Of a stretch of 64,000 nucleotides of DNA, positions 346 through 49,116 are shown one piece after another. Within the stretch, counting starts at the first letter, position 1. Every line of letters begins with the position of its first letter. Source of the stretch: Butyrivibrio sp. (GTDB taxonomy: Bacteria; Bacillota; Clostridia; Lachnospirales; Lachnospiraceae). The position numbers and the translations under genes were made by a program. The notes under the pieces were generated by a model that was not told where the DNA came from, searched no databases, and saw only the letters and a list, made by a program, of their open reading frames with translations. The stretch covers positions 6,397 through 70,396 of the forward strand of contig SVFZ01000120.1 of assembly GCA_015056585.1 (NCBI GenBank), given 5' to 3'.

Positions 346-379
346 ATGATACAAGCTGTATTGTCACAAAACTGTCACA
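346..379 (-). promoter_or_regulatory. Activator-type promoter: TGTGACA-GTTT-TGTGACA direct repeat, 10 nt, then -10 TATCAT
   Basis: 11-bp-period heptamer repeat at 379-362 in place of the -35; same architecture at 49083-49116. Confidence 0.6.
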
Positions 380-438
380 TTAAATATTATAATCGATTAA
401 TCGTTACTGTGCAGACAGAAAATGAGGAAGGCTTTACA

Positions 439-467
439 TTGACACGGGTACAAGCATTTTGTAAAAT
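439..467 (+). promoter_or_regulatory. Sigma-A type promoter upstream of TetR gene
   Basis: TTGACA-17 nt-TAAAAT. Confidence 0.6.
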
Positions 468-537
468 AATAACGCATGGTTTTATTGCAGATCAGGCACG
501 ATGAATTTTTTAACGATAATAATGTTGGAGGAATGAG

Positions 538-1092
538 ATGTCCAGAAAAGCGACTATTACTCAGAAAGAAATTGTAAATGCAGCATTTAAGATAACCAAA
601 AAAGAGGGCTTTGAGCAGATAACATCAAGGAAGCTTGCAGCTGCAGCAGGCTGTTCTACTCAGCCTATTTTCCGTATTTATGAAAATATGGATGGCCTTA
701 AGAAGGATGTTTACGAGAAGGCAGCAGCTTATTATGAGGATTATTACAATGATTTTGCCAAGACACATGATGTGCCTTTTGTTGATCTTGGCCTTGCATA
801 CATCGGCTTTGCCCAGAAATATCCTCATCTTTTCAGACTTCTTTTTGTCTCTGCGAACGGACCTGAGTCCAAGACTATGTACGATCTTGTAAACGGTGCG
901 AATGAGAATGTGGTAAAAGAGATCAATAAGGCTGCAGCCAAGGGCGCAAAGGACGCTCAGCAGCTCTTTATGCAGATGTGGATCTTTATCCATGGTGCCG
1001 GATGCATGGCGGTTACCGGTGATTATGATCTGGACGAGGCTGCATCTGTAGCTTTGCTGGAGTCTGCATACAAGGCTTTCTGCGGTTGCTGA
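538..1092 (+). CDS. TetR/AcrR family transcriptional regulator
   Basis: N-terminal HTH (IVNAAFKIT..GFEQITSRKLAAAAGCSTQPIF); GGAGG RBS. Confidence 0.9.
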   Translation: MSRKATITQKEIVNAAFKITKKEGFEQITSRKLAAAAGCSTQPIFRIYENMDGLKKDVYEKAAAYYEDYYNDFAKTHDVPFVDLGLAYIGFAQKYPHLFRLLFVSANGPESKTMYDLVNGANENVVKEINKAAAKGAKDAQQLFMQMWIFIHGAGCMAVTGDYDLDEAASVALLESAYKAFCGC

Positions 1093-1166
1093 TATTTCGT
1101 GTGAAAATGCTGCAAGACTTATCATAACAGACAAGAACTTGCGGATGATGTTGATTTGGGGGCGAG

Positions 1167-2123
1167 ATGAAGTTTGATGAGGGTGTGGATGTAATTACCA
1201 GAATAAATGAGTGCTACGCAAGGATGAGCAAGGGCAAGAAGTCAATTGCCATGTACATTTGCGATCACTACGAGCAGGCTGTTTTTATGACAGCAGCTGA
1301 ACTGGGGAAAATAGTCGGAATGAGCGAATCCACTGTGGTGCGCTTTGCCATGAGTCTTGGGTACGATGGCTATCCGGCCTTTCAGAAAGCCCTTTCCGTC
1401 TGGGTTTCCGATAAGTTTGGCTCTGTTGAAAAAATTGGCCGCAAATTCGGTAAGAGCAGCGAAGGAGAGATCCTTTCCGCAATCCTTCAGTCCGATATGT
1501 CAAACATTCAGCATACCATAAACAGCATTGATGTGGCGGCATTTAAAACAGCGGTTGATATTATTTTAAAGGCCAGAACGGTATATATCGTGGGGCTCAG
1601 ATCCTGCGCTCCGCTGGCAGATTTTTTACATTTTTATCTTAATATTATCAGGGGCAACAACGTTCTGATAAGAACCACCAGCGTCAGCGAGATGTTCGAG
1701 CAGATGATAAGGATAAGCGACAGGGATGCGATCATCGGCATCAGCTTTCCCAGATACTCCATGAGAACTTTAAAGTGCATGGAGTTTGCCAACGACAGGA
1801 ATGCCAAGGTGATCACAATTACAGATTCCGTACATTCGCCCATGAACCTTTACTCATCCTGTAACCTCCTTGCCAAAAGTGAGATGGCATCTATTGTGGA
1901 TTCACTGGTTGCGCCTCTCAGTGTTATAAATGCACTGGTCGTTGCGCTGTGTATGAAGCGGCCGGCGGACGTAAAGGCTGATCTTAAGATGCTTGAGGAA
2001 ACCTGGAACAATTACCAGGTATATCTTAATGATGAGATTGATTTTGCATCAGATGCTCCGATGATCGGATATCCGCTGGCAGGTAAGAACAAGTCAAAAG
2101 ACGAAGAGAAACAATATGAGTAA
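1167..2123 (+). CDS. MurR/RpiR family transcriptional regulator (HTH + SIS)
   Basis: MTAAELGKIVGMSESTVVRFAMSLGYDGY HTH; SIS motifs GLRS, ISFPRYS, ITDS. Confidence 0.92.
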   Translation: MKFDEGVDVITRINECYARMSKGKKSIAMYICDHYEQAVFMTAAELGKIVGMSESTVVRFAMSLGYDGYPAFQKALSVWVSDKFGSVEKIGRKFGKSSEGEILSAILQSDMSNIQHTINSIDVAAFKTAVDIILKARTVYIVGLRSCAPLADFLHFYLNIIRGNNVLIRTTSVSEMFEQMIRISDRDAIIGISFPRYSMRTLKCMEFANDRNAKVITITDSVHSPMNLYSSCNLLAKSEMASIVDSLVAPLSVINALVVALCMKRPADVKADLKMLEETWNNYQVYLNDEIDFASDAPMIGYPLAGKNKSKDEEKQYE

Positions 2124-3456
2124 TAAAATAGCAGTTATCGGCTGCGGTGCAGCCGGAATGATGGCGGCGCTGTCTGCTGCAGAGTGCGGCGGAAGCGTCA
2201 CTATTTTTGAGAAAAATGAGAAGCCGGGAAAAAAGATCTTTATCACCGGAAAAGGCAGATGTAATGTGACAAATGCCTGTGCGGTAGAAGACTTTTTTGG
2301 CTATGTAAAAAGAAATCCCAGATTTCTGTACAGTGCAGTGTATTCCTTTGACAACACTGCAGTGATGGATTTTTTTGAAAATAACGGGTGCCATTTGAAG
2401 ACTGAGCGCGGAGACAGGGTTTTTCCTGTGTCTGACCACTCTTCCGACATCATTAACACCTTGTACCGTGCAGTTCAAAAAGCCGGAGTAAATATTCAGC
2501 TTGGGGCGACTGTTCACTCTGTTGAGGCGAAAGACGGGAGCGTAAGCGCAATTACCTACAGCAGCGCCGGTGACGAAGCCGGTGATCCGCTGACCAGGGA
2601 AGAGTTTGACAGCGTCATTGTCTGTACCGGCGGTCTGTCCTATCCGTCCACAGGTTCCACAGGTGATGGATATCTTTTTGCAAAAGAGCTTGGACACAGT
2701 GTGGTTGCTGCCAGCCCGTCGCTTGTACCCTTTGAAGTATCGGAACCCTGGGTAAAAGAGCTGCAGGGCTTGTCGCTGCGCAACGTGGGGCTGAAACTCT
2801 TTCTTGAGAAGGAAAACGGTAACGGTAAAACAGCGGCAGCTGAAGGCTCTCATTCTGCCGGAGATGGAAAAGCCAGCGGGAAAGGGGCCGACAAGAAGTC
2901 AAAGCCCGTATATGACGGCTTTGGTGAGATGCTCTTTACCCACTTTGGAGTCAGTGGGCCACTTGTTCTTACAGCCAGTTGTTTTTATGAAAAAGACAAG
3001 GCGGCGCATCTTCTACTTGATTTAAAGCCTGCCCTTTCAGAGGAGCAGCTTGACAAGAGAGTTCTTCGGGATTTTGAAGAGGGACTTAACAAGCAGTTTA
3101 AGAATATTTTGGGAGGTCTTTTCCCAAGTAAGCTTATTCCTGTTATGATAAAGCTCTCGGGGATCGATCCGGAAAAACCTGTTAATGAGATCACAAGAGA
3201 AGAGAGGCTTTCATTTGTAAAGCTGATAAAGAATGTTCCAATGACCGTCACTGGCACCAGAAACTTTAATGAAGCCATCATCACCAGAGGCGGCGTCAGC
3301 GTAAAAAAAGTCAACCCTTCCACAATGGAGTCCAAGCTTGTAAAGGGGCTTTTCTTTGCGGGAGAGGTCTTAGATCTTGATGCTGAGACCGGAGGCTTTA
3401 ACCTTCAGATTGCCTGGTCCACCGGGCACCTGGCCGGTGAGAGTGCAGCTGAGTAG
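2116..3456 (+). CDS. HI0933/YhiN family NAD(P)/FAD-dependent oxidoreductase
   Basis: GCGAAGM, GKKIFITGKGRCNVTN, TGGLSYPSTGSTGDG, GEVLDLDAETGGFNLQIAWSTG. Confidence 0.93.
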   Translation: MSNKIAVIGCGAAGMMAALSAAECGGSVTIFEKNEKPGKKIFITGKGRCNVTNACAVEDFFGYVKRNPRFLYSAVYSFDNTAVMDFFENNGCHLKTERGDRVFPVSDHSSDIINTLYRAVQKAGVNIQLGATVHSVEAKDGSVSAITYSSAGDEAGDPLTREEFDSVIVCTGGLSYPSTGSTGDGYLFAKELGHSVVAASPSLVPFEVSEPWVKELQGLSLRNVGLKLFLEKENGNGKTAAAEGSHSAGDGKASGKGADKKSKPVYDGFGEMLFTHFGVSGPLVLTASCFYEKDKAAHLLLDLKPALSEEQLDKRVLRDFEEGLNKQFKNILGGLFPSKLIPVMIKLSGIDPEKPVNEITREERLSFVKLIKNVPMTVTGTRNFNEAIITRGGVSVKKVNPSTMESKLVKGLFFAGEVLDLDAETGGFNLQIAWSTGHLAGESAAE

Positions 3457-3478
3457 ATTATTTTTTAGGAGAAATGAC

Positions 3479-4159
3479 ATGAGTAAGAAAATTGCAATTG
3501 ATGGACCTGCAGGGGCAGGAAAAAGTACTATAGCGAAAATTGTGGCTAAGGAGCTGGGATTTATATATGTGGACACGGGTGCGATGTACCGTGCGATGGC
3601 TCTTTACATGATAAACAACAATATTGATGCAAGTGATTCTGAGAAGATCAGCGCCACATGCCAGAGCGCTGATATTACGATCAGACATGAAGGCGGCGTT
3701 CAGAGAGTTTATCTGAACGGAGAAGATGTATCCGAACTTGTAAGAAAAGAAGAAGTCGGCAAAATGGCATCAGCCAGCAGCGTCAACGGTGATGTCCGCA
3801 AAAAACTTGTGGAGCTTCAGCAGAAGCTTGCACAGACAACCGATGTTGTAATGGACGGACGTGATATCGGAACTGTAGTGCTGCCGGATGCAGACCTTAA
3901 GGTGTTCCTTACCGCCAGCTCAAGAGTAAGAGCCGAGAGAAGATACAAAGAACTTACGGAAAAAGGAGAAATATGCGATATTGATGCTATCGAGAAGGAT
4001 ATTATCGATCGCGACTACAGGGACAGTCACAGGGAAATCTCTCCTTTAAAACAGGCAGAGGACGCGGTACTTGTAGATACTTCAGACATGACAATCGATG
4101 AAGTAGCCGGGAAGATTGTTGATCTGTACAATAATGTGGGCGCCAAGAGCTCCTTTTGA
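3479..4159 (+). CDS. cmk: Cytidylate kinase
   Basis: IAIDGPAGAGKST, DTGAMYR, VMDGRDIGTVV, RDYRDSHR; start moved to ATG 3479 after AGGAG. Confidence 0.96.
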   Translation: MSKKIAIDGPAGAGKSTIAKIVAKELGFIYVDTGAMYRAMALYMINNNIDASDSEKISATCQSADITIRHEGGVQRVYLNGEDVSELVRKEEVGKMASASSVNGDVRKKLVELQQKLAQTTDVVMDGRDIGTVVLPDADLKVFLTASSRVRAERRYKELTEKGEICDIDAIEKDIIDRDYRDSHREISPLKQAEDAVLVDTSDMTIDEVAGKIVDLYNNVGAKSSF

Positions 4160-4207
4160 TGCTATCCTTATGTAAATCCGTTTACAATGTACAGGAGATT
4201 TTAAATA

Positions 4208-5227
4208 ATGGAAGTAATAGTAGCTGAACACGCAGGTTTTTGCTTTGGCGTAACAAAAGCAGTGGAAACTGTATACGAACAGATAAATGCCGGCAAGACT
4301 TTGAATATTTATACATTTGGACCCATTATCCATAACGAGACCGTTGTCTCAGATCTGGAAAAAAGGGGTGTAAAAGTCATAAATGATATCGAAGACCTGA
4401 AAAAAATAAGTGAAGATCTGAATGGACGAGCTGAGAATCCCGGAGAAATACAAAAGACTACTGATGGGAAAGTGGAAAATGAAAAATCTGACAATTCTAT
4501 GGAAATGGCAGAAAAAATGGTGCAAATGGGGGAAAATGTCTCAGGATTAACCAAAGCTCCAAACAGCGCAGATTCAAAGGGTATAATCGTCATCAGATCA
4601 CACGGGGTTACCAGGGATGTACAGGCTGAGCTGGAAAAATCGGGACTTACGGTCATTGATGCTACCTGTCCTTTTGTAAAAAGAATACACAAGGTAGTAG
4701 ATACCGAGAGTTCAAGCGGTAAAAGGATCATTGTTGTTGGCAGCGCCAATCATCCGGAGGTTCAAGGCATCGTCAGTTATGCAAATGGGCCTGTCTATGT
4801 TATTGAAAGTCCTGAAGAAGCTGAAAAATTCAGCGAAAATAAGGATTTGGATTACACATTGGTGTCCCAGACTACATTTAACAAGAAGAAATTTCAAGAA
4901 ACCGTTGAAATCTTCAAAAATAACAGTTACAATATTAATGTTGTGAATACCATATGTAACGCAACTGATGAACGTCAGACAGAGGCTGAAGAAATTGCAA
5001 GGAAAGCAGATGTTATGATAGTCATCGGAGGCGCTAGCAGTTCGAATTCGAGGAAACTATACGACATTTGTTCGAAAGAGTGCGACAATACATATTTTAT
5101 TCAGACATTGGATGATTTGCATTTAAATTTACATGATGATGTAAAAATAGTGGGAATCACCGCAGGGGCATCGACCCCAAAGAACATTATTGAGGAGGTT
5201 CAGAATTATGTCAGAACAAACTTTTGA
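4208..5227 (+). CDS. ispH: 4-hydroxy-3-methylbut-2-enyl diphosphate reductase (with ~50 aa insertion)
   Basis: GFCFGV, GPIIHN, IRSHG, DATCPFV, NTICNAT, SSNS, ITAGASTP. Confidence 0.95.
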   Translation: MEVIVAEHAGFCFGVTKAVETVYEQINAGKTLNIYTFGPIIHNETVVSDLEKRGVKVINDIEDLKKISEDLNGRAENPGEIQKTTDGKVENEKSDNSMEMAEKMVQMGENVSGLTKAPNSADSKGIIVIRSHGVTRDVQAELEKSGLTVIDATCPFVKRIHKVVDTESSSGKRIIVVGSANHPEVQGIVSYANGPVYVIESPEEAEKFSENKDLDYTLVSQTTFNKKKFQETVEIFKNNSYNINVVNTICNATDERQTEAEEIARKADVMIVIGGASSSNSRKLYDICSKECDNTYFIQTLDDLHLNLHDDVKIVGITAGASTPKNIIEEVQNYVRTNF

Positions 5228-6353
5228 ACAGATGCTTAACGAGTCGTTCAAAACAATTCACACAGGGGAGGTTGTTGAGGGAACGGTCATCGATGTTAAG
5301 CCTGACGAGATAATCCTTAACATTGGATACAAGTCCGATGGTGTTCTCACTAAGAGCGAATACAGCAATGATAACAGCATTGATCTCACAACCGCCGTTA
5401 AAGTTGGCGATACTATGGATGTTAAGGTCCTTAAGACCAACGACGCTGACGGACAGGTTATTCTTTCATACAAGAGACTTGCTATCGATAGAGGCAACAA
5501 GAGAATTGAAGAAGCCTTCAACAACAAAGAGGTTCTTACAGCCAAGGTTGTACAGGTACTTGAGGGCGGTCTTACAGTAGTTGTTGATGAAGTCAGAATC
5601 TTCATTCCTGCAAGCCTTGTATCAGACAGCTATGAGAAGGATCTTTCCAAGTATCAGGATCAGGAGATCCAGTTCGTTGTAACTGAGTACAATCCTAAGA
5701 GAAGAAGATATATCGGTAACAGAAAGATGCTCGTTTCAGCTGAGAAGGCTGAGCAGGCTAAGAAGCTCTTTGATACAATCAAGGCCGGAGATGTTGTTGA
5801 CGGAACAGTCAAGAATGTTACAGACTTTGGTGCATTCATTGATCTTGGCGGTGCAGACGGACTTCTTCATATTTCAGAGATGAGCTGGGGCCGTGTTGAG
5901 AGTCCTAAGAAGGTCTTCAAGATTGGCGATACAGTTAAGGTCCTTGTTAAGTCTATTGACGGCAACAAGATTGCTCTTTCAAGAAAATTCGATGATGAGA
6001 ATCCTTGGAAGGATGCAACTTCTAAGTATGCAGTAGGCAACATTGTTAAGGGAAAGGTTGCCAGAATGACAGACTTTGGTGCATTCATCGAGCTTGAGCC
6101 CGGTATTGACGCACTTCTTCATGTTTCACAGATTGCAAAAGAGCATGTTGAGAAGCCTGCAGATGTACTTAAGGTAGGTCAGGAAGTAGAAGCTAAGATC
6201 GTTGATTTCAACGAGGACGAGAAGAAGATTTCTCTTTCAATCAAGGCTATGTTTGCTCCTGAGAAGGAAGAGGCTCCTGCAGAGGAAGGCGATGTTGTAT
6301 CAGTAGATATCGACAAGGTTATCGCAGAGCAGGAAGAGAATCCTGAGGCATAA
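5208..6353 (+). CDS. rpsA: 30S ribosomal protein S1 (four S1 domains)
   Basis: Repeated S1 motifs (TDFGAFIDLGG.DGLLHISE; TDFGAFIELEPGIDALLHVSQ); ATG 5208 after GAGGAGG. Confidence 0.95.
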   Translation: MSEQTFEQMLNESFKTIHTGEVVEGTVIDVKPDEIILNIGYKSDGVLTKSEYSNDNSIDLTTAVKVGDTMDVKVLKTNDADGQVILSYKRLAIDRGNKRIEEAFNNKEVLTAKVVQVLEGGLTVVVDEVRIFIPASLVSDSYEKDLSKYQDQEIQFVVTEYNPKRRRYIGNRKMLVSAEKAEQAKKLFDTIKAGDVVDGTVKNVTDFGAFIDLGGADGLLHISEMSWGRVESPKKVFKIGDTVKVLVKSIDGNKIALSRKFDDENPWKDATSKYAVGNIVKGKVARMTDFGAFIELEPGIDALLHVSQIAKEHVEKPADVLKVGQEVEAKIVDFNEDEKKISLSIKAMFAPEKEEAPAEEGDVVSVDIDKVIAEQEENPEA

Positions 6354-6385
6354 TAGCAAGCAATAACAGAACATATTGAATTTAT

Positions 6386-6420
6386 AAACCGGTGGAATAA
6401 ATATACATTTCACCGGTTTT
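6386..6420 (+). terminator. Intrinsic terminator after rpsA
   Basis: AAACCGGTG...CACCGGTTT stem followed by T residues. Confidence 0.7.
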
Positions 6421-6446
6421 GCTATCTGATGGTTGGAGTTAATGGA

Positions 6447-8114
6447 ATGGGTCAATACTTGAATCCTGGTAAACAGAATTATTTGATGGCGGTAAACTCT
6501 GATATCTTTATTGATAAATCAGAAATGATCAGCTTTCTTAATAGCGTAGTTAAGACACAACAACGCTACGTCAGTGTTTCACGCCCTCGCAGATTTGGCA
6601 AAACAATGGCTGCTGACATGGTATGCGCTTATTATGGCAGGGGAGCTGACAGCAGAGCTTTATTCGAAACACTAAAACTGTCGCAAATTAAATCCGAGAC
6701 CGAAAAGCTTGCATGGGACAAATACTTAGGTGAGTTCGATGTTATCAGAGTTGTCATGACTGACTTTTTTAAGAAGAATATTTCTTCTGACAGTGCCTTA
6801 CAGAAATTGCAACAGCTTGTTGCTCGTGAGATTGTAAAAGAGTACCCGAACGCAGACTATTTCGATGAAAAAGATCTGATTCAGACCATTGCTGATGCAT
6901 ACACCGACAATCCAAGACAGCTTGTTTTTGTTATAGATGAATGGGATGCGATTTTCAGAGAGAGTAAGGATGATAAGGACGGACAAATAAGGTATCTGGA
7001 TTTCTTGCGTGATCTTTTAAAAGATAAAAGCTATATTGCGCTTGCTTACATGACAGGTATATTGCCTATTAAGAAATATGGCAAGCATTCTGCGCTCAAT
7101 ATGTTTGATGAGTATTCTATGATTTCGCCTATGCAGCTTGCAAGGTATACTGGCTTTACTGACGACGAAGTTAGAGAATTGTGCAATGAATACGGACGTG
7201 ATTTCGATACGCTAAAGGAATGGTATGATGGGTATGAAGTGAGTGATATTATTCCTCCAGATCCAAATTATGAACATCAAGAAAAAACCGGAATGGAAAA
7301 AGAGGCTAAGCATTATTCTATCTATAGCCCGCTATCTGTTCTTAAAGCTGTGAAAACAGGGTATATACAGAATTACTGGAATAAAACAGAATCCTATGAA
7401 GCTCTTGCAAAGTATATTAATATGAATTACTCCGGGCTTAAAGATGTTGTGGCCCTCATGATGGATGGAGGTAGCGTAAAGGTCAATACATCTACATACC
7501 AGAATGATATGACATCGTTTGCATCAAAAAATGATGTGCTATCACTTTTGATTAACCTTGGATATCTTAGATATGATTTTGAGACCATGGAAGCATCTAT
7601 TCCCAATAAAGAGATTCTTGATGAGTTTAGGACATCAACGCAAACAGAGGATTGGACAGAAGTATTTAAAGCTTTTACAGTTTCAGAGAAGTTGCTCAAC
7701 GCCACTTGGGCAAAAGATGCTGATAAAGTAGCAGAGCTAATAGAGGATGCTCATAATCTTGCAGGTAACAGAACCTACAACGACGAGGCGGCACTAAGCT
7801 ACGCTGTTCAGTATGCATATTATGCTGCTCAGAAGTACTATACTACTATTCTGGAACTTGATACTGGCAAAGGTTATGCGGATATAGTATTTATCCCATC
7901 TCCCAAACACTTCGACAAGCCTGCCATGGTCGTAGAGCTTAAGTACAATAAAGATGCAAGCACAGCACTTAATCAGATCAGACAGCAGAAATATCCGGCT
8001 AAACTGGAGCATTACAAGGGTAATATTCTTCTCGTCGGCATCAACTACGACAAGGACGCTGCAAGCACAGATCCTGATTTCAAGCATCATACTTGCGTTA
8101 TAGAAACAGCATAA
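6447..8114 (+). CDS. AAA-ATPase-like protein with C-terminal PD-(D/E)XK nuclease domain
   Basis: RPRRFGKT Walker A, FVIDEWD Walker B, C-terminal GYADIVF...VELKYN...ALNQI...Y. Confidence 0.85.
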   Translation: MGQYLNPGKQNYLMAVNSDIFIDKSEMISFLNSVVKTQQRYVSVSRPRRFGKTMAADMVCAYYGRGADSRALFETLKLSQIKSETEKLAWDKYLGEFDVIRVVMTDFFKKNISSDSALQKLQQLVAREIVKEYPNADYFDEKDLIQTIADAYTDNPRQLVFVIDEWDAIFRESKDDKDGQIRYLDFLRDLLKDKSYIALAYMTGILPIKKYGKHSALNMFDEYSMISPMQLARYTGFTDDEVRELCNEYGRDFDTLKEWYDGYEVSDIIPPDPNYEHQEKTGMEKEAKHYSIYSPLSVLKAVKTGYIQNYWNKTESYEALAKYINMNYSGLKDVVALMMDGGSVKVNTSTYQNDMTSFASKNDVLSLLINLGYLRYDFETMEASIPNKEILDEFRTSTQTEDWTEVFKAFTVSEKLLNATWAKDADKVAELIEDAHNLAGNRTYNDEAALSYAVQYAYYAAQKYYTTILELDTGKGYADIVFIPSPKHFDKPAMVVELKYNKDASTALNQIRQQKYPAKLEHYKGNILLVGINYDKDAASTDPDFKHHTCVIETA

Positions 8115-8123
8115 AGACATTAG

Positions 8124-8162
8124 CATCCCACTTGCACCTACTACGGTAAGTGGGATGTTTGT
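8124..8162 (+). terminator. Intrinsic terminator
   Basis: CATCCCACTT / AAGTGGGATG stem then TTTGT. Confidence 0.65.
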
Positions 8163-8255
8163 ATTAATGAGCATCACGAAATCTTTAACTACGAATTAAA
8201 TGACAACTTATCTGAGCCGCTGTACAATATTACAGTAAGGGTGGGGCAAAATAGA

Positions 8256-8663
8256 ATGAGCGACATCAACTTTGAATTTGAAAATATCAGGATTGATTTT
8301 GAAGCTACCTGCAGATTACTTTCCTGCTATATAAAGGCTAGCGGCTACACGGATAAAGAACTCGCGATGGTGCTTGGCACTACAGTTCAGTCAGTGAACA
8401 AATGGCGCCATGCTCATAACCTTCCGGATATAGATAATCTGTATGCTCTTAGCAGAATGTTTGGGATAGGATTGGATGATCTGATTTTGCCAAATGTTGA
8501 TAGATACACTACAAAGCGAACCTTTTGCAATATCAGACATTATGCTGCGTTAATCAGATGTTTAATACAGACAAAACAAGGCAAGCAAAATTTACATGAC
8601 GGGATTCCCGTTTGTGAGATCAGATACAATGGAGTGGATGGCATCGACTTGGCTATCTGTTAA
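8256..8663 (+). CDS. XRE-family HTH protein
   Basis: GYTDKELAMVLGTTVQSVNKWRHAHNLPDIDNLYALSRMF; possible promoter ATGACA-17-TACAAT upstream. Confidence 0.75.
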   Translation: MSDINFEFENIRIDFEATCRLLSCYIKASGYTDKELAMVLGTTVQSVNKWRHAHNLPDIDNLYALSRMFGIGLDDLILPNVDRYTTKRTFCNIRHYAALIRCLIQTKQGKQNLHDGIPVCEIRYNGVDGIDLAIC

Positions 8664-8966
8664 CAGAGCAAGCCTTGCGTGCAGATCAGTGAGCTTATCC
8701 TTATCACTATTGGAAAAAGAGCTGAGAAATTCCCTGGGCTCTACGCCAAGATAGTCACAGATAGAAAAGAACTCCTTAAGAGATGGAAAAGACTTTCCAT
8801 TTTCAATACTATTGATATAACCATAATTCTTATCAAGGGAAACACTCATTTCTCTGGCTGAGACATTCTTACTGGTCCTAAGAACTGTGAGTCTTGAGGA
8901 AAACTCTTTGAGATATCTCTGAACATTTTCATTCTCAAATTCTTCCTCGATTTTTCTCTTAGCCAT
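8592..8966 (-). CDS. XRE-family HTH regulator
   Basis: VSAREMSVSLDKNYGYINSIENGKSFPSLKEFFSICDYLGV. Confidence 0.85.
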   Translation of the reverse strand: MAKRKIEEEFENENVQRYLKEFSSRLTVLRTSKNVSAREMSVSLDKNYGYINSIENGKSFPSLKEFFSICDYLGVEPREFLSSFSNSDKDKLTDLHARLALLTDSQVDAIHSIVSDLTNGNPVM

Positions 8967-9128
8967 AAATAAGTGTTCCTCTGGATTCTCATAGATTTAT
9001 GCGTAACTACGCACACATCTCAATTTTAATAAAATCCAAAGAAATAAGCGGAAGATATTATCGGATATCGCCGCATAAATATCATATAAAATCTGTTTGG
9101 ACTAAAATACAGGATGATTATCCTAAAG

Positions 9129-9161
9129 AAAGCGGTCTGCCTCTGATTTGGCAGACCGCTT
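9129..9161. repeat. GCGGTCTGC(C)...GCAGACCGC palindrome, copy 1 (terminator-like on minus strand)
   Basis: AAGCGGTCTGCC / GGCAGACCGCTT stem; related copies at 20308-20335 and 24880-24914. Confidence 0.7.
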
Positions 9162-9183
9162 GTCGTTGTACTCGGTTTGGGGA

Positions 9184-9219
9184 TGGGCTGTTTTCTTAAG
9201 AATTAAACGGATTTGCGAA
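9184..9219 (+). repeat. ~36 bp imperfect direct repeat, copy 1
   Basis: TGGGCTGTTTTCTTAAGAATTAAACGGATTTGCGAA vs TGGGC-GTTTTCTTAAGAATTTAACGGTATTGCGTA at 21336-21370 (about 31/36 identical). Confidence 0.65.
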
Positions 9220-17845: not shown

Positions 17846-17851
17846 AGGCTT

Positions 17852-32650: not shown

Positions 32651-33376
32651 TCACTGCAAATAAAATGCTCGCCCCTGAGATGAGAGTGTTATCATATTTC
32701 CGTCTACTTTGATCAGACCGTCGTCCTGCATTTTGCCAAGTTCACGGCAGACGCTGGATCTTTCGGAGCAGACATACTGTGCGAGCTGCTCTCTGGTAAA
32801 AGAGAGTGTGAAGGCCTTGTTATCACGTTCTTTTGATAATTGGATAAAATAAGTAAGCAGCTTCTTGCGCAGGGACTTCTGCGTAAGGAGCTGTATTTTT
32901 CTGTTGAGAATAATGTTATTTCTGGCCAGAATAGTAGTAATGTTCGTGACAAATTTGGTGTAATAAGATTTATTCACCGGATTGAGCAGGAGGCTATTGA
33001 TGTTCAGAAATAGAATTTTTGAGTTTCTGATAACTCTGTAATGCGAGAGATTATTTGTCATTCCTGTTATACAAAAGGCAGGACCAACAATATCTCCATC
33101 CGTATTTCTTCCCACAATCTCTTCATCTCCGGTAACAGAAATGTGCAAAACATCAACTTCACCTGAGAGAATTATCCCGGCATGGGATATGGCACTGTCA
33201 GGCGGATACAGTTCAGTACCTTTCTTGCATTCTTTTAAGTAATAGTCGGAGTTTTCCAAAAGAAGCAAAAGCTCATCGTCTGTGAAATTTTGAAACAGAC
33301 GGGCCTTTTTAAGGAGAAGGAGCTTTTCGTCTTTCCCATTATTTGTTTTATGATCAAAAAGCGAATTATTCAGCAT
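32651..33376 (-). CDS. Crp/Fnr family transcriptional regulator
   Basis: cNMP-binding-type barrel (GIILSGEV..GDIVG) and C-terminal HTH (FTREQLAQYVCSERSSVCRELGKM). Confidence 0.9.
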   Translation of the reverse strand: MLNNSLFDHKTNNGKDEKLLLLKKARLFQNFTDDELLLLLENSDYYLKECKKGTELYPPDSAISHAGIILSGEVDVLHISVTGDEEIVGRNTDGDIVGPAFCITGMTNNLSHYRVIRNSKILFLNINSLLLNPVNKSYYTKFVTNITTILARNNIILNRKIQLLTQKSLRKKLLTYFIQLSKERDNKAFTLSFTREQLAQYVCSERSSVCRELGKMQDDGLIKVDGNMITLSSQGRAFYLQ

Positions 33377-39797: not shown

Positions 39798-39893
39798 AAT
39801 TTGGCATTATTTATATGCTTAGTATGCGTTAAAAGTGGTACCAATACAAATAAACCTGGGTGACATTGAAACTAGTAAGAACTGGATATGATA

Positions 39894-39932
39894 AGGCCGG
39901 AAACATCTGTCGATGCTCCCGGCCTGTTTTTT
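39894..39932. terminator. Terminator between convergent ABC and xylanase genes
   Basis: AGGCCGG...CCGGCCT stem followed by GTTTTTT. Confidence 0.65.
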
Positions 39933-39967
39933 GTTGTGGTATTTTTGACTGATTAAACTAGTTTGTT

Positions 39968-42310: not shown

Positions 42311-42717
42311 ATTACCTCCTCTCTTTATTTATGCCACAACAAAAGGTGAAAGATAGAGTGTTGCTCTATTGATAAAAGAGCAACGTTCCTTTGATACTTT
42401 TAATATAGCCGAAAAAGTTGTACGAATTAATGTAAAAGTTTTACTTTTTTAAGCACAATTTTTACTTTTTTTACATTTTATTAACGTTTTGTTTAGAATT
42501 GTTGTGCAAAAATCACTTTGATTACTGAAAATAAAAGTAAAAAGTTCAGCAATCTGCATATGAATTATTGAAATTAATAAGCGGGTGTTTGTGCTATACT
42601 ATGGACGGGGTTGGCGAAGTATGGATTTGTGTTTTGAGCAGGATATATAAATATATGATTATCAGTGAAGAATTGTTTTTTGTTTGGCAATAATTTAGAA
42701 ATGAAGGTTTAGTTTTA

Positions 42718-43095
42718 ATGAAATTGTTTAAGAAAAATGATTTGATACTTATTGGAGCTTTGCTTATAGGATTTCTTCTTATGATTTGTTTCCTTTATTT
42801 TGGAAAAAAAGGCGGAGCTTATGCGGTGGTCAGTGTTGACGGGCAGGAAGTTATTTCTTTTTCCCTTGAAGAGGATATCGAATACGAAATAAAAGGCTAT
42901 GAAGGCGGGACTAATACTCTGATAATTAAGGATGGAAAGGCTTATCTTACAGATTCCACCTGCCCGGACCATCTTTGCGAACATATGGGAGTAATTGATA
43001 AAGTGGGGCAGTCCATAATCTGCCTCCCCAACCGGGTAGTTGTGGAAATCAGCGGAAGCAGCGGGGACGCGGAATTCGATTCGATTTCGTCCTAA
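42718..43095 (+). CDS. NusG domain II (DUF1312, EetA-like) membrane protein
   Basis: N-terminal TM; AVVSVDG, STCPDHLC, IICLPNRVVVEI. Confidence 0.85.
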   Translation: MKLFKKNDLILIGALLIGFLLMICFLYFGKKGGAYAVVSVDGQEVISFSLEEDIEYEIKGYEGGTNTLIIKDGKAYLTDSTCPDHLCEHMGVIDKVGQSIICLPNRVVVEISGSSGDAEFDSISS

Positions 43096-43108
43096 GGATA
43101 GGATTTGC

Positions 43109-43132
43109 GAAAATGTCATAAGTGACATTTTC
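43109..43132. repeat. Perfect 10-bp inverted repeat GAAAATGTCA-TAAG-TGACATTTTC
   Basis: Intergenic, seen directly; role (hairpin or operator) unknown. Confidence 0.5.
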
Positions 43133-43203
43133 AAAATACTTGTACTAAGGAACTGTAGCGAAATAATTTGAACATTTTGCTAAAGCTCATAAAGAGGATA
43201 TTT

Positions 43204-43695
43204 ATGACAATCAGAAAAATTTCTCAATACGGAATGATGGTAGCGCTCGCGCTGATAATGAGTTACATAGAAGCTCAGATACCTGCTTTTTTTGCTGTGC
43301 CCGGAATGAAGCTGGGCCTCACTAATATTGTGGTTGTGGTTTCGTTGTACCTGCTTGGAAGCAAAAGCGCGATGTTTATCAATATAGTACGTATTATTCT
43401 TGTTTCGCTTCTTTTTGGAAATACCATGAGTCTTGCCTTTTCGTTTGCGGGAGGTATGCTAAGCACTTTGATCATGATCATCCTGAAAAAAAGCGGTAAA
43501 TTCAGCACCGTTGGTGTCAGTGCAGCCGGCGGTATCACACATAACATCGGACAGATTCTTGTGGCAATCTTTCTTCTTAATACCAGTGCAATTACATGGT
43601 ACCTTCCAATTCTCTGGATATCAGGCATCGTCTCCGGAATTGTAATAGGAATCATCGCTGGAATTGTCACAAGCAGATTGGCGGAAGCTTCCTGA
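43204..43695 (+). CDS. Gx transporter family protein (EetB-like)
   Basis: SYIEAQIP..PGMKLGLTN, SAAGGITHNIGQI. Confidence 0.88.
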   Translation: MTIRKISQYGMMVALALIMSYIEAQIPAFFAVPGMKLGLTNIVVVVSLYLLGSKSAMFINIVRIILVSLLFGNTMSLAFSFAGGMLSTLIMIILKKSGKFSTVGVSAAGGITHNIGQILVAIFLLNTSAITWYLPILWISGIVSGIVIGIIAGIVTSRLAEAS

Positions 43696-44245
43696 TTTTG
43701 TTTCAATAACAATTCTTTCTTATGATCCATTTGACGCCGGAGATATGTATTATGAGACTAATACAATTTTATCAACGCATCCGCAAATACTATACAATGA
43801 TGGAATTTCTCATATATATTTATACAGTAACGGGAATATAAATAAGTCATTATCACCTTCGCATGGAAAACGACTTATGGAAGTGCTAAAATACATAGTA
43901 TCAGGGGAGAAACCTGATGTACTAAATCCTGAAATTAGTAGCCTCGAAACTATCGTGTCAAAAATTAAGAAAAGACCGGAGGTAACCAAGAAATATATGC
44001 AGCAATGGGATAGAGAAAGAATTCTTGTGCAGGAGGCAATGGCTGAAGGAAAAGAGCAAGGAAAAGAATTGGCGATTATAGCTAAAATTTGTAAAAAGCT
44101 TCTCAAAGGGAAAAGCATTGAAACAATTGCTTCGGAGATTGAAGAGCAAGAATCTTTTGTCAAGGAAATCTGCACTATAGCTGAAAGATTTCTTCCTGAT
44201 TGTGACGAAGACGCAATTTACGATGAATGGAAGAAAAAAAACTGA
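43688..44245 (+). pseudogene. 5'-truncated Rpn/PD-(D/E)XK family gene; C-terminal part intact
   Basis: KLPDFVSITILSYDPF...YLYSNG...VKKRPEVTKKYM...EGKEQG; N-terminal nuclease domain absent, sequence begins inside the Gx gene's 3' end. Confidence 0.65.
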
Positions 44246-44259
44246 AACATTACGAAGCC

Positions 44260-44311
44260 GGGGGCTATCGCTTAGAATGATTAAATCACTAGGCGATGCC
44301 CCCCTTTCTTT
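44260..44311 (+). terminator. Intrinsic terminator
   Basis: GGGGGCTATCGCTTAG...CTAGGCGATGCCCCC then TTTCTTTT. Confidence 0.65.
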
Positions 44312-44487
44312 TAGACATCAATCTTTTACCGAGACTATTTTTCAGTTTCAAATTCACAACATTTAATATATTTTTAATAGAATATTGCATCAACGTATTG
44401 GATAATTATACTTATGATAGCGAAAATGATTTTTTCATAGTTCATTTCGCACATAACTAAGCAGTCTGAAAAACCGGGGGTTTCTTA

Positions 44488-46596
44488 ATGACAAAAAAGA
44501 TAGTTGCACTGGTTCTGTCAATTTCCATTACTATAATTTCATCTGCTTGTGGCGCGCCGGATTTAGGCAAGCTTGACAATCCAAAAGAAAACGCGAAAGG
44601 CTCCAGGCTGGGCAGCACTATAGGCTGGATCGACTCTGATATCATCGGAGCCATTGATGAAAACGATAACATAAGGCTGGAGGACGACTATGCTGCTGCA
44701 GTGAATAAAGAGTGGAAGCTCAGTATGGGAGATACCTTCCATCAGGTATTTCAGGGAACTGCAGACAGAGTTCTTGAGAAGAAAAAGCAGGCTGTTATCA
44801 ACTCAGATATCGAAGGCGTTGAGGCTAAGGTTCTCAGGGACTATTACAATCTTGCATCCGACTGGGACTACAAAAACAAGCTGGGCATCGAACCGCTAAA
44901 GCCCTATCTTAATGACATTGAGTCCATAAAAAGCTATGAAGACCTTATGGCTTTTACCAAGGATCTTGAGCGTAACCCTCTGGCTTTCGGCCCGATATCT
45001 GTAGATATTTTAAGTGCCTACCACTCTGAAAAGTTCCCGGACTGCTTTATCACAATAATCGGAGCACCGGAGCTGTCCTTAAGCGATTATGGTGGAAGTT
45101 CCCTGTATGATTCACTTGGAGATACAGCCGGATTTGCAGCTTATGAAGCCCTTGAGGACAGAGCGATATATCTTCTGGGACGAGCAGGATACACGGAAAA
45201 AGACGCAAAAAAAATCCTTCAGAACAGCCTCTCCTGGGAAAAGAAAGTTGCCAGAGCCGATGACACCGGCGGCATATCAAAGGTAGACTCTGCACTTACC
45301 ACAAAAAAAGAAGCAATGCAAAAAGCAGGAGACTTTCCTTTGGAGGAAATCATAGATTCCTGGGGCTTTAGTAGTGCAAGAGCAGTACTTATTCCATCAG
45401 GCTATGCCAAAAAACTTTCATCCCTATGGAGCAAAAGAAATCTCGAAAAAATAAAGGACTATCTTCTTTTAAGATATGCTTTTCATTCTGCAAAGTTTTT
45501 GGACAGGGAAGCTTATGACACATATGCAGAGCTTGGAGCCTCCAGGAGCCAGAAAGAAATTGATTTTGGCAAGAGCCCGCAGCAGATGGAGGATGAACTG
45601 ATCTTTGGCCTTTATATCGGACAGACCGGAATAAGCGGAGCAATGGACTATGTATACTTAAAGAACTACTTTGATGACTCTGTTACAGGAGAACTGGTTA
45701 GCATGACCCGGGATGTAATAGATGCTTACAAGGTAATCTTCAGCGAGGAAGAATGGCTGTCGGATGAGGGTAAAAAAGCCTGTCTTGAAAAGCTCGATGC
45801 CATCAGCATCAACGTTGCATGGCCATCTTTTGAAGCTCTTGACTATAACAACATGCAATTTACGGCAAAAGAGGATGGCGGAAATTTCCTTGATGCATAT
45901 TTTGAAGCAAACAGATTTGAGATAGCACACAAGGCATATATTTCGCAGATGCAGTACAGCGCTGATTACTGGGAGCCTCTTGGCCAGGATAACTCCACAA
46001 CCGTTACCAATGCCTATTACAATCCAAACACCAACGGAATATACATTTTGGCCGGAATATGTGAATATCCGGCATATTCACCTGAACTGACTTATGAGGA
46101 AAAACTTGGCGGACTTTTTGCCATAGTCGGTCATGAGATCACTCATGGATTTGACGAGAACGGTTCTTTATACGACAAGGAGGGAATGGAAAAGAGCTGG
46201 CTTCCTGAAGAAGATAAGACTGCATTTGCTGACAGATGTGACAAAGTGGCATCCTACTATGATACATTTACTCCTTTTGCCGGAGCGGGGCTCTATGATG
46301 GAAAGCTTGTGAGTGCCGAAGCTACAGCAGATATGGGCGGCATAAAAGCAATGCTTACTCTTGCAAAGCAAAAGCCTGATTTTGATTACGATCTTTTCTT
46401 CAGATCATATGCAAGGAACTACAGAGTAAATATTCCGTATGATGTTGAGAAATATTTTTTAAGTGATGTACATCCGCTTGGTTTCTATAGAGTCAATATA
46501 GGACTCCAGCAGTTCGATGAGTTCATTGAAACTTATGGAATAAAAGAGGGAGACGGAATGTACCTGGATCCTGAAAATAGAGTGAGCGTCTGGTAA
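44488..46596 (+). CDS. M13 family zinc metallopeptidase, lipoprotein
   Basis: Lipobox SSAC; NAYY, GHEITHGFD, EATAD, HP..RVN. Confidence 0.9.
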   Translation: MTKKIVALVLSISITIISSACGAPDLGKLDNPKENAKGSRLGSTIGWIDSDIIGAIDENDNIRLEDDYAAAVNKEWKLSMGDTFHQVFQGTADRVLEKKKQAVINSDIEGVEAKVLRDYYNLASDWDYKNKLGIEPLKPYLNDIESIKSYEDLMAFTKDLERNPLAFGPISVDILSAYHSEKFPDCFITIIGAPELSLSDYGGSSLYDSLGDTAGFAAYEALEDRAIYLLGRAGYTEKDAKKILQNSLSWEKKVARADDTGGISKVDSALTTKKEAMQKAGDFPLEEIIDSWGFSSARAVLIPSGYAKKLSSLWSKRNLEKIKDYLLLRYAFHSAKFLDREAYDTYAELGASRSQKEIDFGKSPQQMEDELIFGLYIGQTGISGAMDYVYLKNYFDDSVTGELVSMTRDVIDAYKVIFSEEEWLSDEGKKACLEKLDAISINVAWPSFEALDYNNMQFTAKEDGGNFLDAYFEANRFEIAHKAYISQMQYSADYWEPLGQDNSTTVTNAYYNPNTNGIYILAGICEYPAYSPELTYEEKLGGLFAIVGHEITHGFDENGSLYDKEGMEKSWLPEEDKTAFADRCDKVASYYDTFTPFAGAGLYDGKLVSAEATADMGGIKAMLTLAKQKPDFDYDLFFRSYARNYRVNIPYDVEKYFLSDVHPLGFYRVNIGLQQFDEFIETYGIKEGDGMYLDPENRVSVW

Positions 46597-46612
46597 GGGA
46601 GGGATAGCAGCA

Positions 46613-47434
46613 ATGAGCGAATCTGTTATTAAACTTGAAGATGTCAGGAAAGCATACGGAAAACACGAAGTACTAAAGGGTGTAAACATGAACGTCCAAA
46701 AGGGCGATATATATGGCCTGATCGGTAGAAACGGCGCCGGCAAGACCACAATTTTCAAAATGATTCTGGGGCTCTCCGAAGTAAATTCCGGAAATGTCTC
46801 AATAGAAGGCTCCACCGACAAAAAGGAACTTTTAAAGAACAGATCCAAGATCGGATTCCTTGTAGGAACCAGGTTTTACAACTATTTAAATGCAGAAAAA
46901 AACCTGCTTTATTTCGCTACTGTTAAGGGTATCCCCAGAAGAGAGAGAAAAGCAGAGATAAAGAGGGTTCTTGAGATAGTGGGACTAAAGGGGGTAAAAA
47001 AGCCGGTTAAGTCCTTCTCGCTTGGAATGCAGCAGAGACTGGGAATAGCAAATGCCATATTGGGGAATCCGGATATCCTTATCCTGGACGAGCCCACGAA
47101 CGGCCTGGATCCACAGGGAATTGCCGACATACGTAATCTGATAAAGAAGCTCCGCGATGAGAACAACATGACAGTAATTGTTTCTTCCCACATTTTGGGC
47201 GAGCTTGAACACACGGCGGATCGTTTTGGAATCGTGAATGAAGGAATAGTGGTAAAAGAGATAACGCAGATGGATCTTCAGGAGAATCAGCCGGCAGTTG
47301 AGATTGCGGTCGATGACCTTGTCAGGGCAAAAGAGGTGCTGGAAAATGCAGGCATTAAGATAATTCGTGAAGTTAATGAGAAGTCTTCTCTTGAAGATTT
47401 CTATTTCCGTCTTGTGGGAGGATCAGCTGAATGA
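46613..47434 (+). CDS. ABC ATP-binding protein (BcrA/lantibiotic-immunity type)
   Basis: GRNGAGKTT, FSLGMQQRLGIA, LDEPTNGLDPQG, SSHIL. Confidence 0.9.
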   Translation: MSESVIKLEDVRKAYGKHEVLKGVNMNVQKGDIYGLIGRNGAGKTTIFKMILGLSEVNSGNVSIEGSTDKKELLKNRSKIGFLVGTRFYNYLNAEKNLLYFATVKGIPRRERKAEIKRVLEIVGLKGVKKPVKSFSLGMQQRLGIANAILGNPDILILDEPTNGLDPQGIADIRNLIKKLRDENNMTVIVSSHILGELEHTADRFGIVNEGIVVKEITQMDLQENQPAVEIAVDDLVRAKEVLENAGIKIIREVNEKSSLEDFYFRLVGGSAE

Positions 47435-48144
47435 GAAATCTTATTAAGGCAGATCTAAAAAGAATACTTTCAAAGAAAGGCCTTTATGCTTCGCTTATTT
47501 TAATGATCCTGATAACTATCTTCCCGGGATCTAAAAGATCGGCTTCTGAACAGATTGAGTCTTATAAGACTTTATTTAATACCATTGGCCTTACAATTAT
47601 GTGCATCCCGATTTTTCTGTCAGTATATGGAGATGAGCTCAGAAGCGGAACAATGATCACAACAATCGGAATGGGGCTTCATCGCCACAAGCTGGTTAAG
47701 GCAAAACTGTGGGTATGCACAATACTTCTCCTTGGGTCATACAGTGTATTATATGGAACAGCTCTTTTTAAATTTTATTTAGATGATCTTGTGATCACAG
47801 AGAAGCAAAGTTTATTTTTGTTTATATATTGCCTTTACTGCGTTATACGCGGCGTTGGTATATTTGCACTCTCATCCCTTGTGCTTTTTGTCAGCATGAG
47901 CGCAGCAGGAGGAATGCTTATGCTGGTTCTGGCAGGAATGGCATCATCTCCAATCTTAAAGGGATTTCAAGACAAACTTAAGCTTCCTTTTTATGACATC
48001 AGCTATATGGGCCTTCTCGACGCTTCATTTGCAAGTTTTCAGGCAGGAGGTTTTGGCGGAACTTTGATCGTGGCACTTATTTATCTGGCAATAGTGATCT
48101 ACATTAACGTGAAATTATTCGACAGAAAGGAGCTGAATCTATGA
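47431..48144 (+). CDS. ABC-2 type permease
   Basis: Six hydrophobic segments; overlaps ATPase stop. Confidence 0.75.
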   Translation: MRNLIKADLKRILSKKGLYASLILMILITIFPGSKRSASEQIESYKTLFNTIGLTIMCIPIFLSVYGDELRSGTMITTIGMGLHRHKLVKAKLWVCTILLLGSYSVLYGTALFKFYLDDLVITEKQSLFLFIYCLYCVIRGVGIFALSSLVLFVSMSAAGGMLMLVLAGMASSPILKGFQDKLKLPFYDISYMGLLDASFASFQAGGFGGTLIVALIYLAIVIYINVKLFDRKELNL

Positions 48145-48887
48145 GGCGGGTTATCATAGCGGATATAAGACGAATAGTCTTTAGAATTTGGCCCTGGATA
48201 TTTCTTGCTGTCGCTTTCGCAGTAATTGCAGGCTCCTTTGCATACAGTATAAACGATGCTGTCGACAGAGAGTTCTTTTACCTTACAGAAGTTTCAGGAC
48301 AGACGTTAGCCACATTGGTCATAGGTTTTGTGCTTATCTTAGGGATATTCGGCGATGAGTTTAAATCCATGGCTATGATAGGTATTATCGGAAGGGGGCT
48401 TAACAGGGACAAGTTTGTCCTGGCAAAGTTCTTTGATGAGATCATTCTGGGAATCATGTTCCTTACGATTACGGCAGTCTTTGCTGTAGTGATAGCACTT
48501 GGTTTTAACATAAAACTCTCTTCAACGGAAGTTTCATTTATGATGCTGTCATTTATAATGGAATTTCTGGAGCTTATAGCCTACCTGACCATTTCAGCAA
48601 TGTTTTTCTTTCTCTCGGAAAATGTGGCTATGGGCGTGTTTGCTTTCCTCTCTTTTGAGTTTATCATTCCGGTGGCACTTTACTTTGCATCTATGCTCGC
48701 CGTGGTTCAAAGGTATCATCTTGACAGCTACTATGTCAGCGGCCTTTTGGGCAGAGCTTTCTCAGACTTTATCATGGGAGATATATTGGAAGGTGTTATC
48801 GTTATTTTGATTACAATTATTGCCTATATTGGGCTTCCTTTGTTTGTCACAATGTTCTACTTTAGGAAAAAAGAGATGGAGTTCTAG
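48141..48887 (+). CDS. ABC-2 type permease
   Basis: Paralog of preceding gene (GDE.RSG/GDEFKS..IG.GL.R.K motif). Confidence 0.75.
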   Translation: MRRVIIADIRRIVFRIWPWIFLAVAFAVIAGSFAYSINDAVDREFFYLTEVSGQTLATLVIGFVLILGIFGDEFKSMAMIGIIGRGLNRDKFVLAKFFDEIILGIMFLTITAVFAVVIALGFNIKLSSTEVSFMMLSFIMEFLELIAYLTISAMFFFLSENVAMGVFAFLSFEFIIPVALYFASMLAVVQRYHLDSYYVSGLLGRAFSDFIMGDILEGVIVILITIIAYIGLPLFVTMFYFRKKEMEF

Positions 48888-48987
48888 GGAAATATCTGTA
48901 TAAAAATAAATAGCGTATAAAAATTCTTAAAAAAGGATAATAATTAAACGTAAAATAGTGCAATTCACAGAAAAAGTAATATATAAT

Positions 48988-49040
48988 AAATCCATCGAAA
49001 GTATAGAGAATATGTCATACTTCGATGGATTTTTCTTTTT
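48988..49040 (+). terminator. Intrinsic terminator upstream of Tad promoter
   Basis: AAATCCATCGAA...TTCGATGGATTT then TTCTTTTT. Confidence 0.7.
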
Positions 49041-49082
49041 GCGGATCCACCAAAATCATAATTTAAATTATTTTTGTAAAAG

Positions 49083-49116
49083 TGTGACAGTTTTGTGATA
49101 GAAGTGGTGATAAGAT
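49083..49116 (+). promoter_or_regulatory. Activator-type promoter of Tad operon: TGTGACA-GTTT-TGTGATA, 10 nt, TAAGAT
   Basis: 16 bp identical to the motif at 379-364 (minus), same 10-nt spacing to -10. Confidence 0.6.

Follow-up and report, generated by a model that had tools for sequence, protein, structure and literature searches.

A repeat-box promoter shared by a Tad pilus operon and a lipoprotein gene in Butyrivibrio, and a candidate receiver-SARP regulator

The locus

The window analysed here is a stretch of 64,000 nucleotides (nt) from Butyrivibrio sp. (contig C124, positions 6397-70396), part of a 3.44-Mb draft genome of 128 contigs with 41.8% G+C and a completeness of 94.5%, in which gene calls are our own choices among the open reading frames. 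It contains the 5' part of a lipoprotein gene and a pilus operon of the Tad type, each preceded by the same pair of direct heptamer repeats, and it is this box, the promoter class that it marks and the protein that probably acts on it that are considered here. Butyrivibrio and Pseudobutyrivibrio are major fibre degraders of the rumen, and almost nothing is known of how their attachment and surface proteins are controlled. The features needed for the argument are as follows.

1..276, minus strand: 5' part of the lipoprotein gene, an open reading frame of 555 amino acids (aa) with its ATG at 276-274 and a signal peptide ending in the lipobox LTAC; it runs off the window start.
346..351, minus strand: -10 hexamer TATCAT of the lipoprotein gene, exactly 10 nt past the second heptamer, a spacing kept at other sites.
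362..379, minus strand: predicted lipoprotein activator box, both heptamers TGTGACA with the spacer GTTT, read from the sequence and from orthologous promoters.
48991..49040, plus strand: hairpin followed by a T-run, after an ABC-type operon.
49083..49100, plus strand: predicted Tad activator box, TGTGACA GTTT TGTGATA, present also in metagenome contig L156.
49111..49116, plus strand: Tad -10 hexamer TAAGAT with a preceding TGa (extended -10).
49123..49264, plus strand: predicted leader of the pilin mRNA, 142 nt and A/C-rich, from the predicted start to the ATG at 49265.
49265..62363, plus strand: Tad pilus operon, assigned by Pfam, beginning with the pilin ATG.

There are exactly two copies of the 16-mer TGTGACAGTTTTGTGA in the window, one on the minus strand (364-379) and one on the plus strand (49083-49098), and both read just as an earlier note on this DNA had described them. 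The same note placed a -10 hexamer, directed towards the gene, 10 nt beyond the second heptamer, and this too is true of both sites. Taken in the direction of its gene, the lipoprotein site consists of TGTGACA (379-373), GTTT, TGTGACA (368-362), ATACAGCTTG and TATCAT (351-346), and the Tad site of TGTGACA (49083-49089), GTTT, TGTGATA (49094-49100), GAAGTGGTGA and TAAGAT (49111-49116). A consensus scan of the Tad promoter found no canonical pair of -35 and -10 hexamers.

The product of the lipoprotein gene belongs to no family found by Pfam. The Tad operon encodes a Flp-like pilin, a Ser/Thr kinase, a TadZ-like protein, the TadA ATPase, TadB/C, a DUF5702 protein, a prepilin peptidase, and WG-repeat and FHA proteins; its identity follows from Pfam matches to Flp1_like (below the cut-off), T2SSE, T2SSF, a ParA-like family and Peptidase_A24. 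The hairpin upstream of its promoter (ATCCATCGAAGTAT...ATACTTCGATGGAT TTTTCTTTTT), which was recognised by eye, with a terminator scan returning none, would insulate the Tad promoter from the ABC-type operon. On the opposite strand of the lipoprotein box, at 361-390 (plus), the heptamers read as a consensus-like promoter, TTGTCA-18 nt-TATTAT, facing a divergent TetR gene (538-1092) which has a better promoter at 439-467; protein binding at the lipoprotein box could therefore also affect the TetR gene.

A class of promoters in the genome

Taken by itself the repeated 16-mer is not significant, as about one such repeat is expected per 64 kb when both strands are counted, and in 14 of 100 shuffles there were two or more matches with at most three mismatches. 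The statistics of the whole genome are of another order. For these we defined a strict motif, TGTGAYA-N4-TGTGAYA, leaving the -10 hexamer out of the search pattern and using the reversed pattern as a control, which gave no match in any genome searched. By the account of the earlier note, a motif not enriched before genes or not conserved in relatives would tell against its reading; the opposite was found, with 10 sites where the frequency of the heptamer would lead one to expect 0.2, and with the motif kept before orthologous genes of related species. The spacing is narrowly defined, since the heptamer pairs fall at 4 nt (10 sites), 5 nt (three) and 6 nt (one) and never at 0-3 or 7-14 nt. Two further sites, each one base off the strict motif, bring the number in the genome to 12, and a weight-matrix scan shows a sharp gap in score below these top 12. 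The genome-wide scan that the earlier note had proposed thus yields 12 promoters, all of them with TAnnAT exactly 10 nt past the second heptamer and all facing, at a distance of 76-341 nt, a start codon with a ribosome-binding site.

A promoter model could be pooled from 91 distinct sites in about 60 genomes. The register of the -10 is its firmest feature: among 92 core matches, 91 have TAnnnT at exactly +10, and a shift of one base is never seen. The same holds in 80 loci that were fetched by the regulator gene discussed below, and hence blind to the motif, where 40 of 41 core matches have TAnnnT at exactly this place. G precedes heptamer 1 in 64 of the 91 sites, C, G or T (rarely A) precedes heptamer 2, and the spacer between them is T-rich. 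About 70% of the sites carry TG at -15/-14 (TGnTAnnAT), an extended -10. CA is enriched at motif positions 40-41, that is 6-7 nt past the -10, and the first 15 bases beyond the predicted start are A-rich. In the window the conserved CA/A at position 41 corresponds to the A at 49123, with C before it, for the pilus operon and to the A at 339 for the lipoprotein gene; these are the transcription starts predicted here, and they coincide with the coordinates given in the earlier note.

Judged from sequence, the result is a promoter class, sTGTGAYA-N4-TGTGAYA-N10-TAnnAT, usually with a TG-extended -10 and an A/C-rich leader, that is predicted to head at least 12 transcription units. From the existence of this class, together with its conservation in relatives, it follows that both sites of the window would belong to one regulon, and the claim that a single regulon joins the pilus and lipoprotein genes is in this way supported.

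Conservation and target genes

Our sample of the genus comprised 40 representatives, and the strict pattern was scanned in 36 other species of the genus, in 24 genomes of other families and in 200 other genera of Lachnospiraceae. The motif with its -10 occurs in 10 of the 36 species and in none of the remaining ones, nor in the 24 genomes of other families; among the 200 genera only four carry it, with one or two matches each. The number of sites per genome ranges widely (G003, 1; G004, 7; G005, 13; G006, 4; G012, 10; G019, 4; G023, 1; G029, 3; G030, 8; G035, 8). Relaxing heptamer position 4 to N, in search of a variant motif in the motif-free species, gained no site.

The lipoprotein gene is the most widely conserved target seen, with the motif before it in five species (G000, G004, G005, G012, G030), four of them other than the one studied here, and the orthologues of an InlB-repeat protein, a 230-aa protein and a 144-aa protein keep it in G005. 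The pilus operon is found in this genome alone among the 40 representatives of the genus. Its kinase has no orthologue in the 40 genus genomes, and in a collection of 5.8 billion proteins only four close relatives were found. The near-identical (95%) metagenome contig L156 has the same box, and two metagenome contigs of 74% identity end at the -10 or inside the leader. The Tad operon looks recently acquired, yet it stands under the promoter of the regulon. As to the leader itself (49123-49264), it is about 95% identical in L154 (1-143), where the kinase is only 74% identical, and A/C-rich leaders follow the motif at other targets too, for example in G023.

Ten of the 12 units begin with a gene for a secreted, lipoprotein or membrane product. 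Beyond those of the window, and lying elsewhere in the genome, the target units are the following.

Esterase lipoprotein.
HAD-hydrolase lipoprotein, then a GDSL lipase.
909-aa InlB-repeat/Big_2 surface protein, then an HD-GYP protein.
Zinc-ribbon membrane protein, then the 144-aa secreted protein.
230-aa membrane-anchored protein.
Two small lipo- or membrane proteins.
Membrane protein, LysM-like by eye, for which Pfam found no family.
Small peptide, then a glycosyltransferase.
52-aa cytoplasmic protein.

The third motif site of the contig is at C124:70884, about 490 nt past the window end. Enzymes of cyclic di-GMP (c-di-GMP) turnover recur 3' of motif sites, at C124:73884-76013 just past the window end, at L097 11077-13260 and at L014 4793-6133: an HD-GYP protein follows the motif both here and in P. 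xylanivorans, and a protein with a receiver (REC) and a GGDEF domain follows it in Butyrivibrio sp. NC2007. In another genome, that of Butyrivibrio sp. XPD2006 (G267, which holds locus L085), a 34-nt site sequence (TGTGACAATTTTGTGATAGTCGCCATGATAATAT) is present in three identical copies, at its C1:192, C10:159452 and C19:63050, one of these being at a contig end; a target gene there may have been multiplied or may lie on a repeat element.

A candidate regulator

Clustering of the genes that neighbour target sites in G005, G012, G030, G006, G029, G004, G023 and G003 gave no recurrent regulator gene. A search of three motif-rich relatives with Trans_reg_C gave weak matches in proteins of 262-282 aa, and the gene of one of these, in G012, ends 12 nt before a motif site. 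The one member in the present genome, of which the G012 protein is a 31%-identical paralogue, is a 271-aa protein composed of a receiver domain and a probable divergent winged helix of OmpR/SARP type (C16:33006-33821), and we regard it as the candidate regulator.

Its receiver domain is well defined (PF00072, E 1.5e-16), with D7, D9, D53, T81 and K101 all present. The match to Trans_reg_C (PF00486) is weak, at E 0.022 and 15 bits against a cut-off of 26, and it is likewise weak in 37 of 38 orthologues; paralogues pass the cut-off with E 1e-6. When a profile of the whole protein is compared with PDB, its alignment to the OmpR-family structures DrrB, DrrD, PhoP and PrrA runs unbroken from the receiver into the winged helix, and a profile of the C-terminal 150 residues, paralogues included, has its best PDB matches in DrrB, AfsR and EmbR (E 0.001-0.02). 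Beyond the winged helix there is a short tail of about 65 residues. Among orthologues of 68-97% overall identity the putative recognition region, KKLSYLCNLRQDLQNTF, hardly varies. Source annotations name orthologues of the candidate as a 'two-component SAPR family response regulator, REC, wHTH and BTAD' (COG3947), wHTH being the winged helix-turn-helix.

The regulator is taken to be an orphan because no kinase gene adjoins it; beside it lie the genes for a MATE pump and for a 171-aa protein. The gene of the latter (C16:32494-33009) overlaps with its end the regulator gene, and the two are predicted to be co-transcribed. This partner has no Pfam or PDB match. A partner of about 165-171 aa lies directly 5' of the regulator in seven of seven loci inspected, those of Pseudobutyrivibrio and B. 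fibrisolvens 16/4 among them, and in several of these the partner gene follows STAS-like and SpoIIAB-like genes.

Three sets of data connect this protein with the motif, and they are independent except that G005, G012, G029 and G030 of the genus sample recur among the loci and genomes of the other two. Within the genus sample, G004, G005, G012, G019, G029, G030 and G035 have orthologues at 80-86% identity and G023 has one of 66%, and every one of these genomes bears the motif; in the motif-free genomes (about 30) the best match to the candidate is at most 42% identical. For the second set one genome per species was scanned for relatives of the regulator. Of the 293 found, the best 80 loci were examined (64-91% identity, 1.1 Mb in total, from Butyrivibrio, Pseudobutyrivibrio, rumen Lachnospiraceae and other Clostridia); 33 of these contain 40 strict sites within 8 kb of the regulator gene and there are no control matches. 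The sites fall into four clusters. The first is on the regulator strand 567-573 nt upstream, immediately ahead of the partner gene; the second, at 1.6-1.8 kb upstream, precedes the STAS-like genes, partner and regulator; the third is 810-905 nt from the regulator start, just past its stop codon; and the fourth is divergent, 0.6-0.7 kb upstream of the regulator. In the third set, whole-genome scans of regulator carriers taken from among these loci, 26 of 28 genomes have 1-14 strict sites, again with no control matches, as against four of the 200 other genera. As far as sequences can tell, the association between regulator and motif is very strong, and the protein at C16:33006-33821 appears the most likely regulator of the class.

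Proposed activation of promoters without a -35

We consider it probable that the Tad and lipoprotein sites belong to one promoter class of at least 12 units, mostly for surface and secreted products, in which the box replaces the -35 and which is switched on by the receiver-SARP regulator encoded on C16. The binding sites of SARP activators are direct repeats of heptamers with an 11-bp period that overlap the -35 (PMC10972967, PMC10936776), and the afs box in particular is centred at -29.5, its upstream repeat extending from -40 to -30 (PMC10936776, PMC10972967). At such a promoter two side-by-side protomers of AfsR touch sigma region 4, the beta flap, the beta' zinc-binding domain and the alpha C-terminal domain, an arrangement termed 'sigma adaptation' (PMC10936776, PMC10972967). 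With the predicted start at motif position 41, the 11-bp units of the present box span -40 to -30 and -29 to -19, as in the AfsR box, and because the coordinates are the same, activation by sigma adaptation is proposed. Membership of the SARP type is, on this comparison of putative sites, supported for the repeat structure.

The heptamer pair would thus occupy the place of the -35 while itself lacking the -35 consensus. Two protomers of the regulator would bind head-to-tail, one per repeat and one helical turn apart, on a box centred at about -29.5, and once bound they could contact region 4 of sigma-A and the core of RNA polymerase, standing in for the missing -35 as has been shown structurally for AfsR. 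In this manner the regulator may activate transcription by sigma-A at promoters that have an extended -10 and no -35. The regulator gene itself is often preceded by the motif in relatives, from which positive autoregulation would follow.

Several observations weigh against this interpretation. The association has exceptions: G006 is 99% complete and has four good sites, yet its best match to the regulator is 39% identical, a clear break in the co-occurrence, and G003 (80% complete) has one site and no close orthologue, a further exception; conversely, two of the 28 regulator-bearing genomes are without a strict site. In the genome studied here the regulator is on a different contig from the window with no motif nearby, and autoregulation is not evident. 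In some species the binder could be a paralogue and not the candidate, as the G012 paralogue near a site illustrates. The protein also fits its proposed role imperfectly. In 10 of 38 orthologues E, N or Q stands at the position of the phospho-acceptor D53, which makes control by phosphorylation uncertain, each of the winged-helix matches is weak, and none of the 38 orthologues matched BTAD (PF03704) even with E values as high as 1 allowed. In an AlphaFold model the receiver is good and the C-terminal half has a predicted local distance difference test score (pLDDT) below 50. Finally, the distance from the 3' repeat to the -10 is 10 nt here as against 8 bp in the SARP literature, and the match of coordinates hangs on the predicted start.

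Alternative explanations

Besides a different binder such as a paralogue, the main alternative is that the box might be the operator of a repressor, so that the SARP-type protein or some other protein blocks the promoter. It does overlap a region that RNA polymerase must occupy, and the good extended -10 at about 70% of sites belongs to a kind of promoter that can work without a -35. A fixed register of the -10 in 91 of 92 sites, however, is something that contact between activator and polymerase requires and steric repression does not, and the missing -35 consensus together with the SARP precedent favours activation (PMC10936776). We therefore think repression unlikely.

Still less probable, in our judgement, is activation by a canonical regulator of the OmpR/PhoB family, to which the earlier note had attributed the boxes. 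Its reading of the geometry, in which the repeats replace the -35, stands, as probably does that of the DNA-binding fold; the assignment to the family has to be adjusted, since the motif tracks the SARP-type protein of receiver and wHTH instead. PhoB and CiaR boxes are built in the same way, as direct repeats of 11-bp period that stop 10 nt short of the -10, and there is an obvious candidate in a BceR-like gene (C80:44903-45619). This gene is placed between three motif-like sites, points away from the one at C80:45711 and has beside it an ABC transporter preceded by a motif-like TGTGACAATTTTGTAATG. The candidate was rejected: at least 15 genomes that lack the motif have the BceR-like module of regulator, kinase and ABC genes, conserved at 72-85% identity, and the promoter of its ABC genes has an inverted repeat of its own, (T/G)TACA-N4-TGTAAT, in all 18 species examined, whether the regulon is present or not. 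Nor, among the matches listed, does any other of the 12 canonical genes for a receiver joined to Trans_reg_C follow the distribution of the motif. From searches with concatenated queries, in which 8 to 21 candidates were scored per genome, four of the remaining 11 were tested properly and none tracks the motif, and seven have orthologues in motif-free genomes among the matches listed.

The Bce-like module is a genus-wide feature in its own right. It extends over C80:39276-45619 (L002 3277-9620) and consists of the response regulator, a 332-aa intramembrane kinase, an ABC ATPase and an 859-aa FtsX permease, and the inverted repeat before its transporter genes is followed in 18 of 18 species by AAAAGTCAC-N6-GTAA. 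A weak 'site' at C80:43854 is this inverted-repeat box and no member of the regulon.

It is hardly credible that the shared sequence arose by chance, serves as a CRP/FNR-type site or is the -35 of an alternative sigma factor. A repeated 16-mer is, it is true, no surprise in 64 kb, TGTGA is the half-site of CRP, and the window includes a Crp/Fnr gene (32651-33376). Yet the statistics across the genome and across species exclude chance. The heptamers form a direct and not an inverted repeat, with a common TGTGATA form that is not palindromic and a position 4 that is always G. The centre of the box at about -29.5 to -32.5 differs from the class II position of CRP, and no sigma factor matches a distance of 10 or 21 nt to a -10 of sigma-A type.

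Wider significance

The analysis provides an exact promoter model that includes the predicted start, a predicted regulon with 1-14 strict sites per genome (in 26 of 28 carriers) and a named candidate for the regulator, and a pilus operon absent from the other sampled species of the genus is found under a promoter specific to this regulon. With the activation proposed here, sigma adaptation by SARPs at promoters without a -35 would extend from the antibiotic clusters of actinomycetes to the surface biology of a Firmicute. More tentatively, the regulator could be the output of a signalling pathway of rumen Lachnospiraceae that has not been described, comprising an orphan receiver-SARP protein with a decaying phospho-acceptor, an obligatory partner of 165-171 aa, a frequent linkage to partner switching of the STAS/SpoIIAB-like kind and c-di-GMP enzymes (HD-GYP and REC-GGDEF proteins) as targets. 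Such a pathway might switch the entire set of adhesion and surface proteins, among them a Tad pilus that came by horizontal transfer and joined the regulon when it gained a box; we offer this as a speculation that is more doubtful than the promoter class itself.

Comparison with known systems

The closest resemblance is to the promoters of the SARPs, such as AfsR with its afs box, ActII-ORF4 and DnrI. These share with the present class the direct heptamer repeats spaced by 4 nt where a -35 is missing or poor. If transcription starts as predicted, the box of 22 bp would also be centred alike, near -29.5, with its upstream repeat from -40 to -30, and the candidate regulator may resemble the SARPs in having an OmpR-like winged helix followed by a helical tail; the expected mechanism, sigma adaptation by a side-by-side dimer that contacts sigma region 4, would likewise be the same. 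They differ in that the host here is a rumen Firmicute and not an actinomycete, and in that the candidate begins with a receiver, continues for some 65 residues beyond the winged helix and has no BTAD domain recognised by Pfam. The targets here are scattered surface genes and a pilus operon, whereas those of the SARPs form a biosynthetic cluster, and the repeat is TGTGAYA, with the heptamer end 10 nt and not 8 nt from the -10.

The PhoB pho box and the CiaR and WalR boxes are alike in having direct repeats one helical turn apart that lie about 10 nt from the -10 and replace the -35. The consensus of WalR, TGTWAH-N5-TGTWAH, departs from TGTGAY-N5-TGTGAY at position 4 only. Unlike these systems, the motif in Butyrivibrio is not followed in its distribution by any canonical regulator of the OmpR family (seven being judged from the matches listed), and the regulator to which it is linked falls under the Pfam cut-off for Trans_reg_C.

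With the SAPR family of COG3947 (REC-wHTH-BTAD) the likeness lies in the name, which is the one that source annotations give to the orthologues of the candidate. No characterised member, binding site or regulon of this receiver-SARP group was found in the open literature searched, and with the present proposal the group would gain its first site and regulon.

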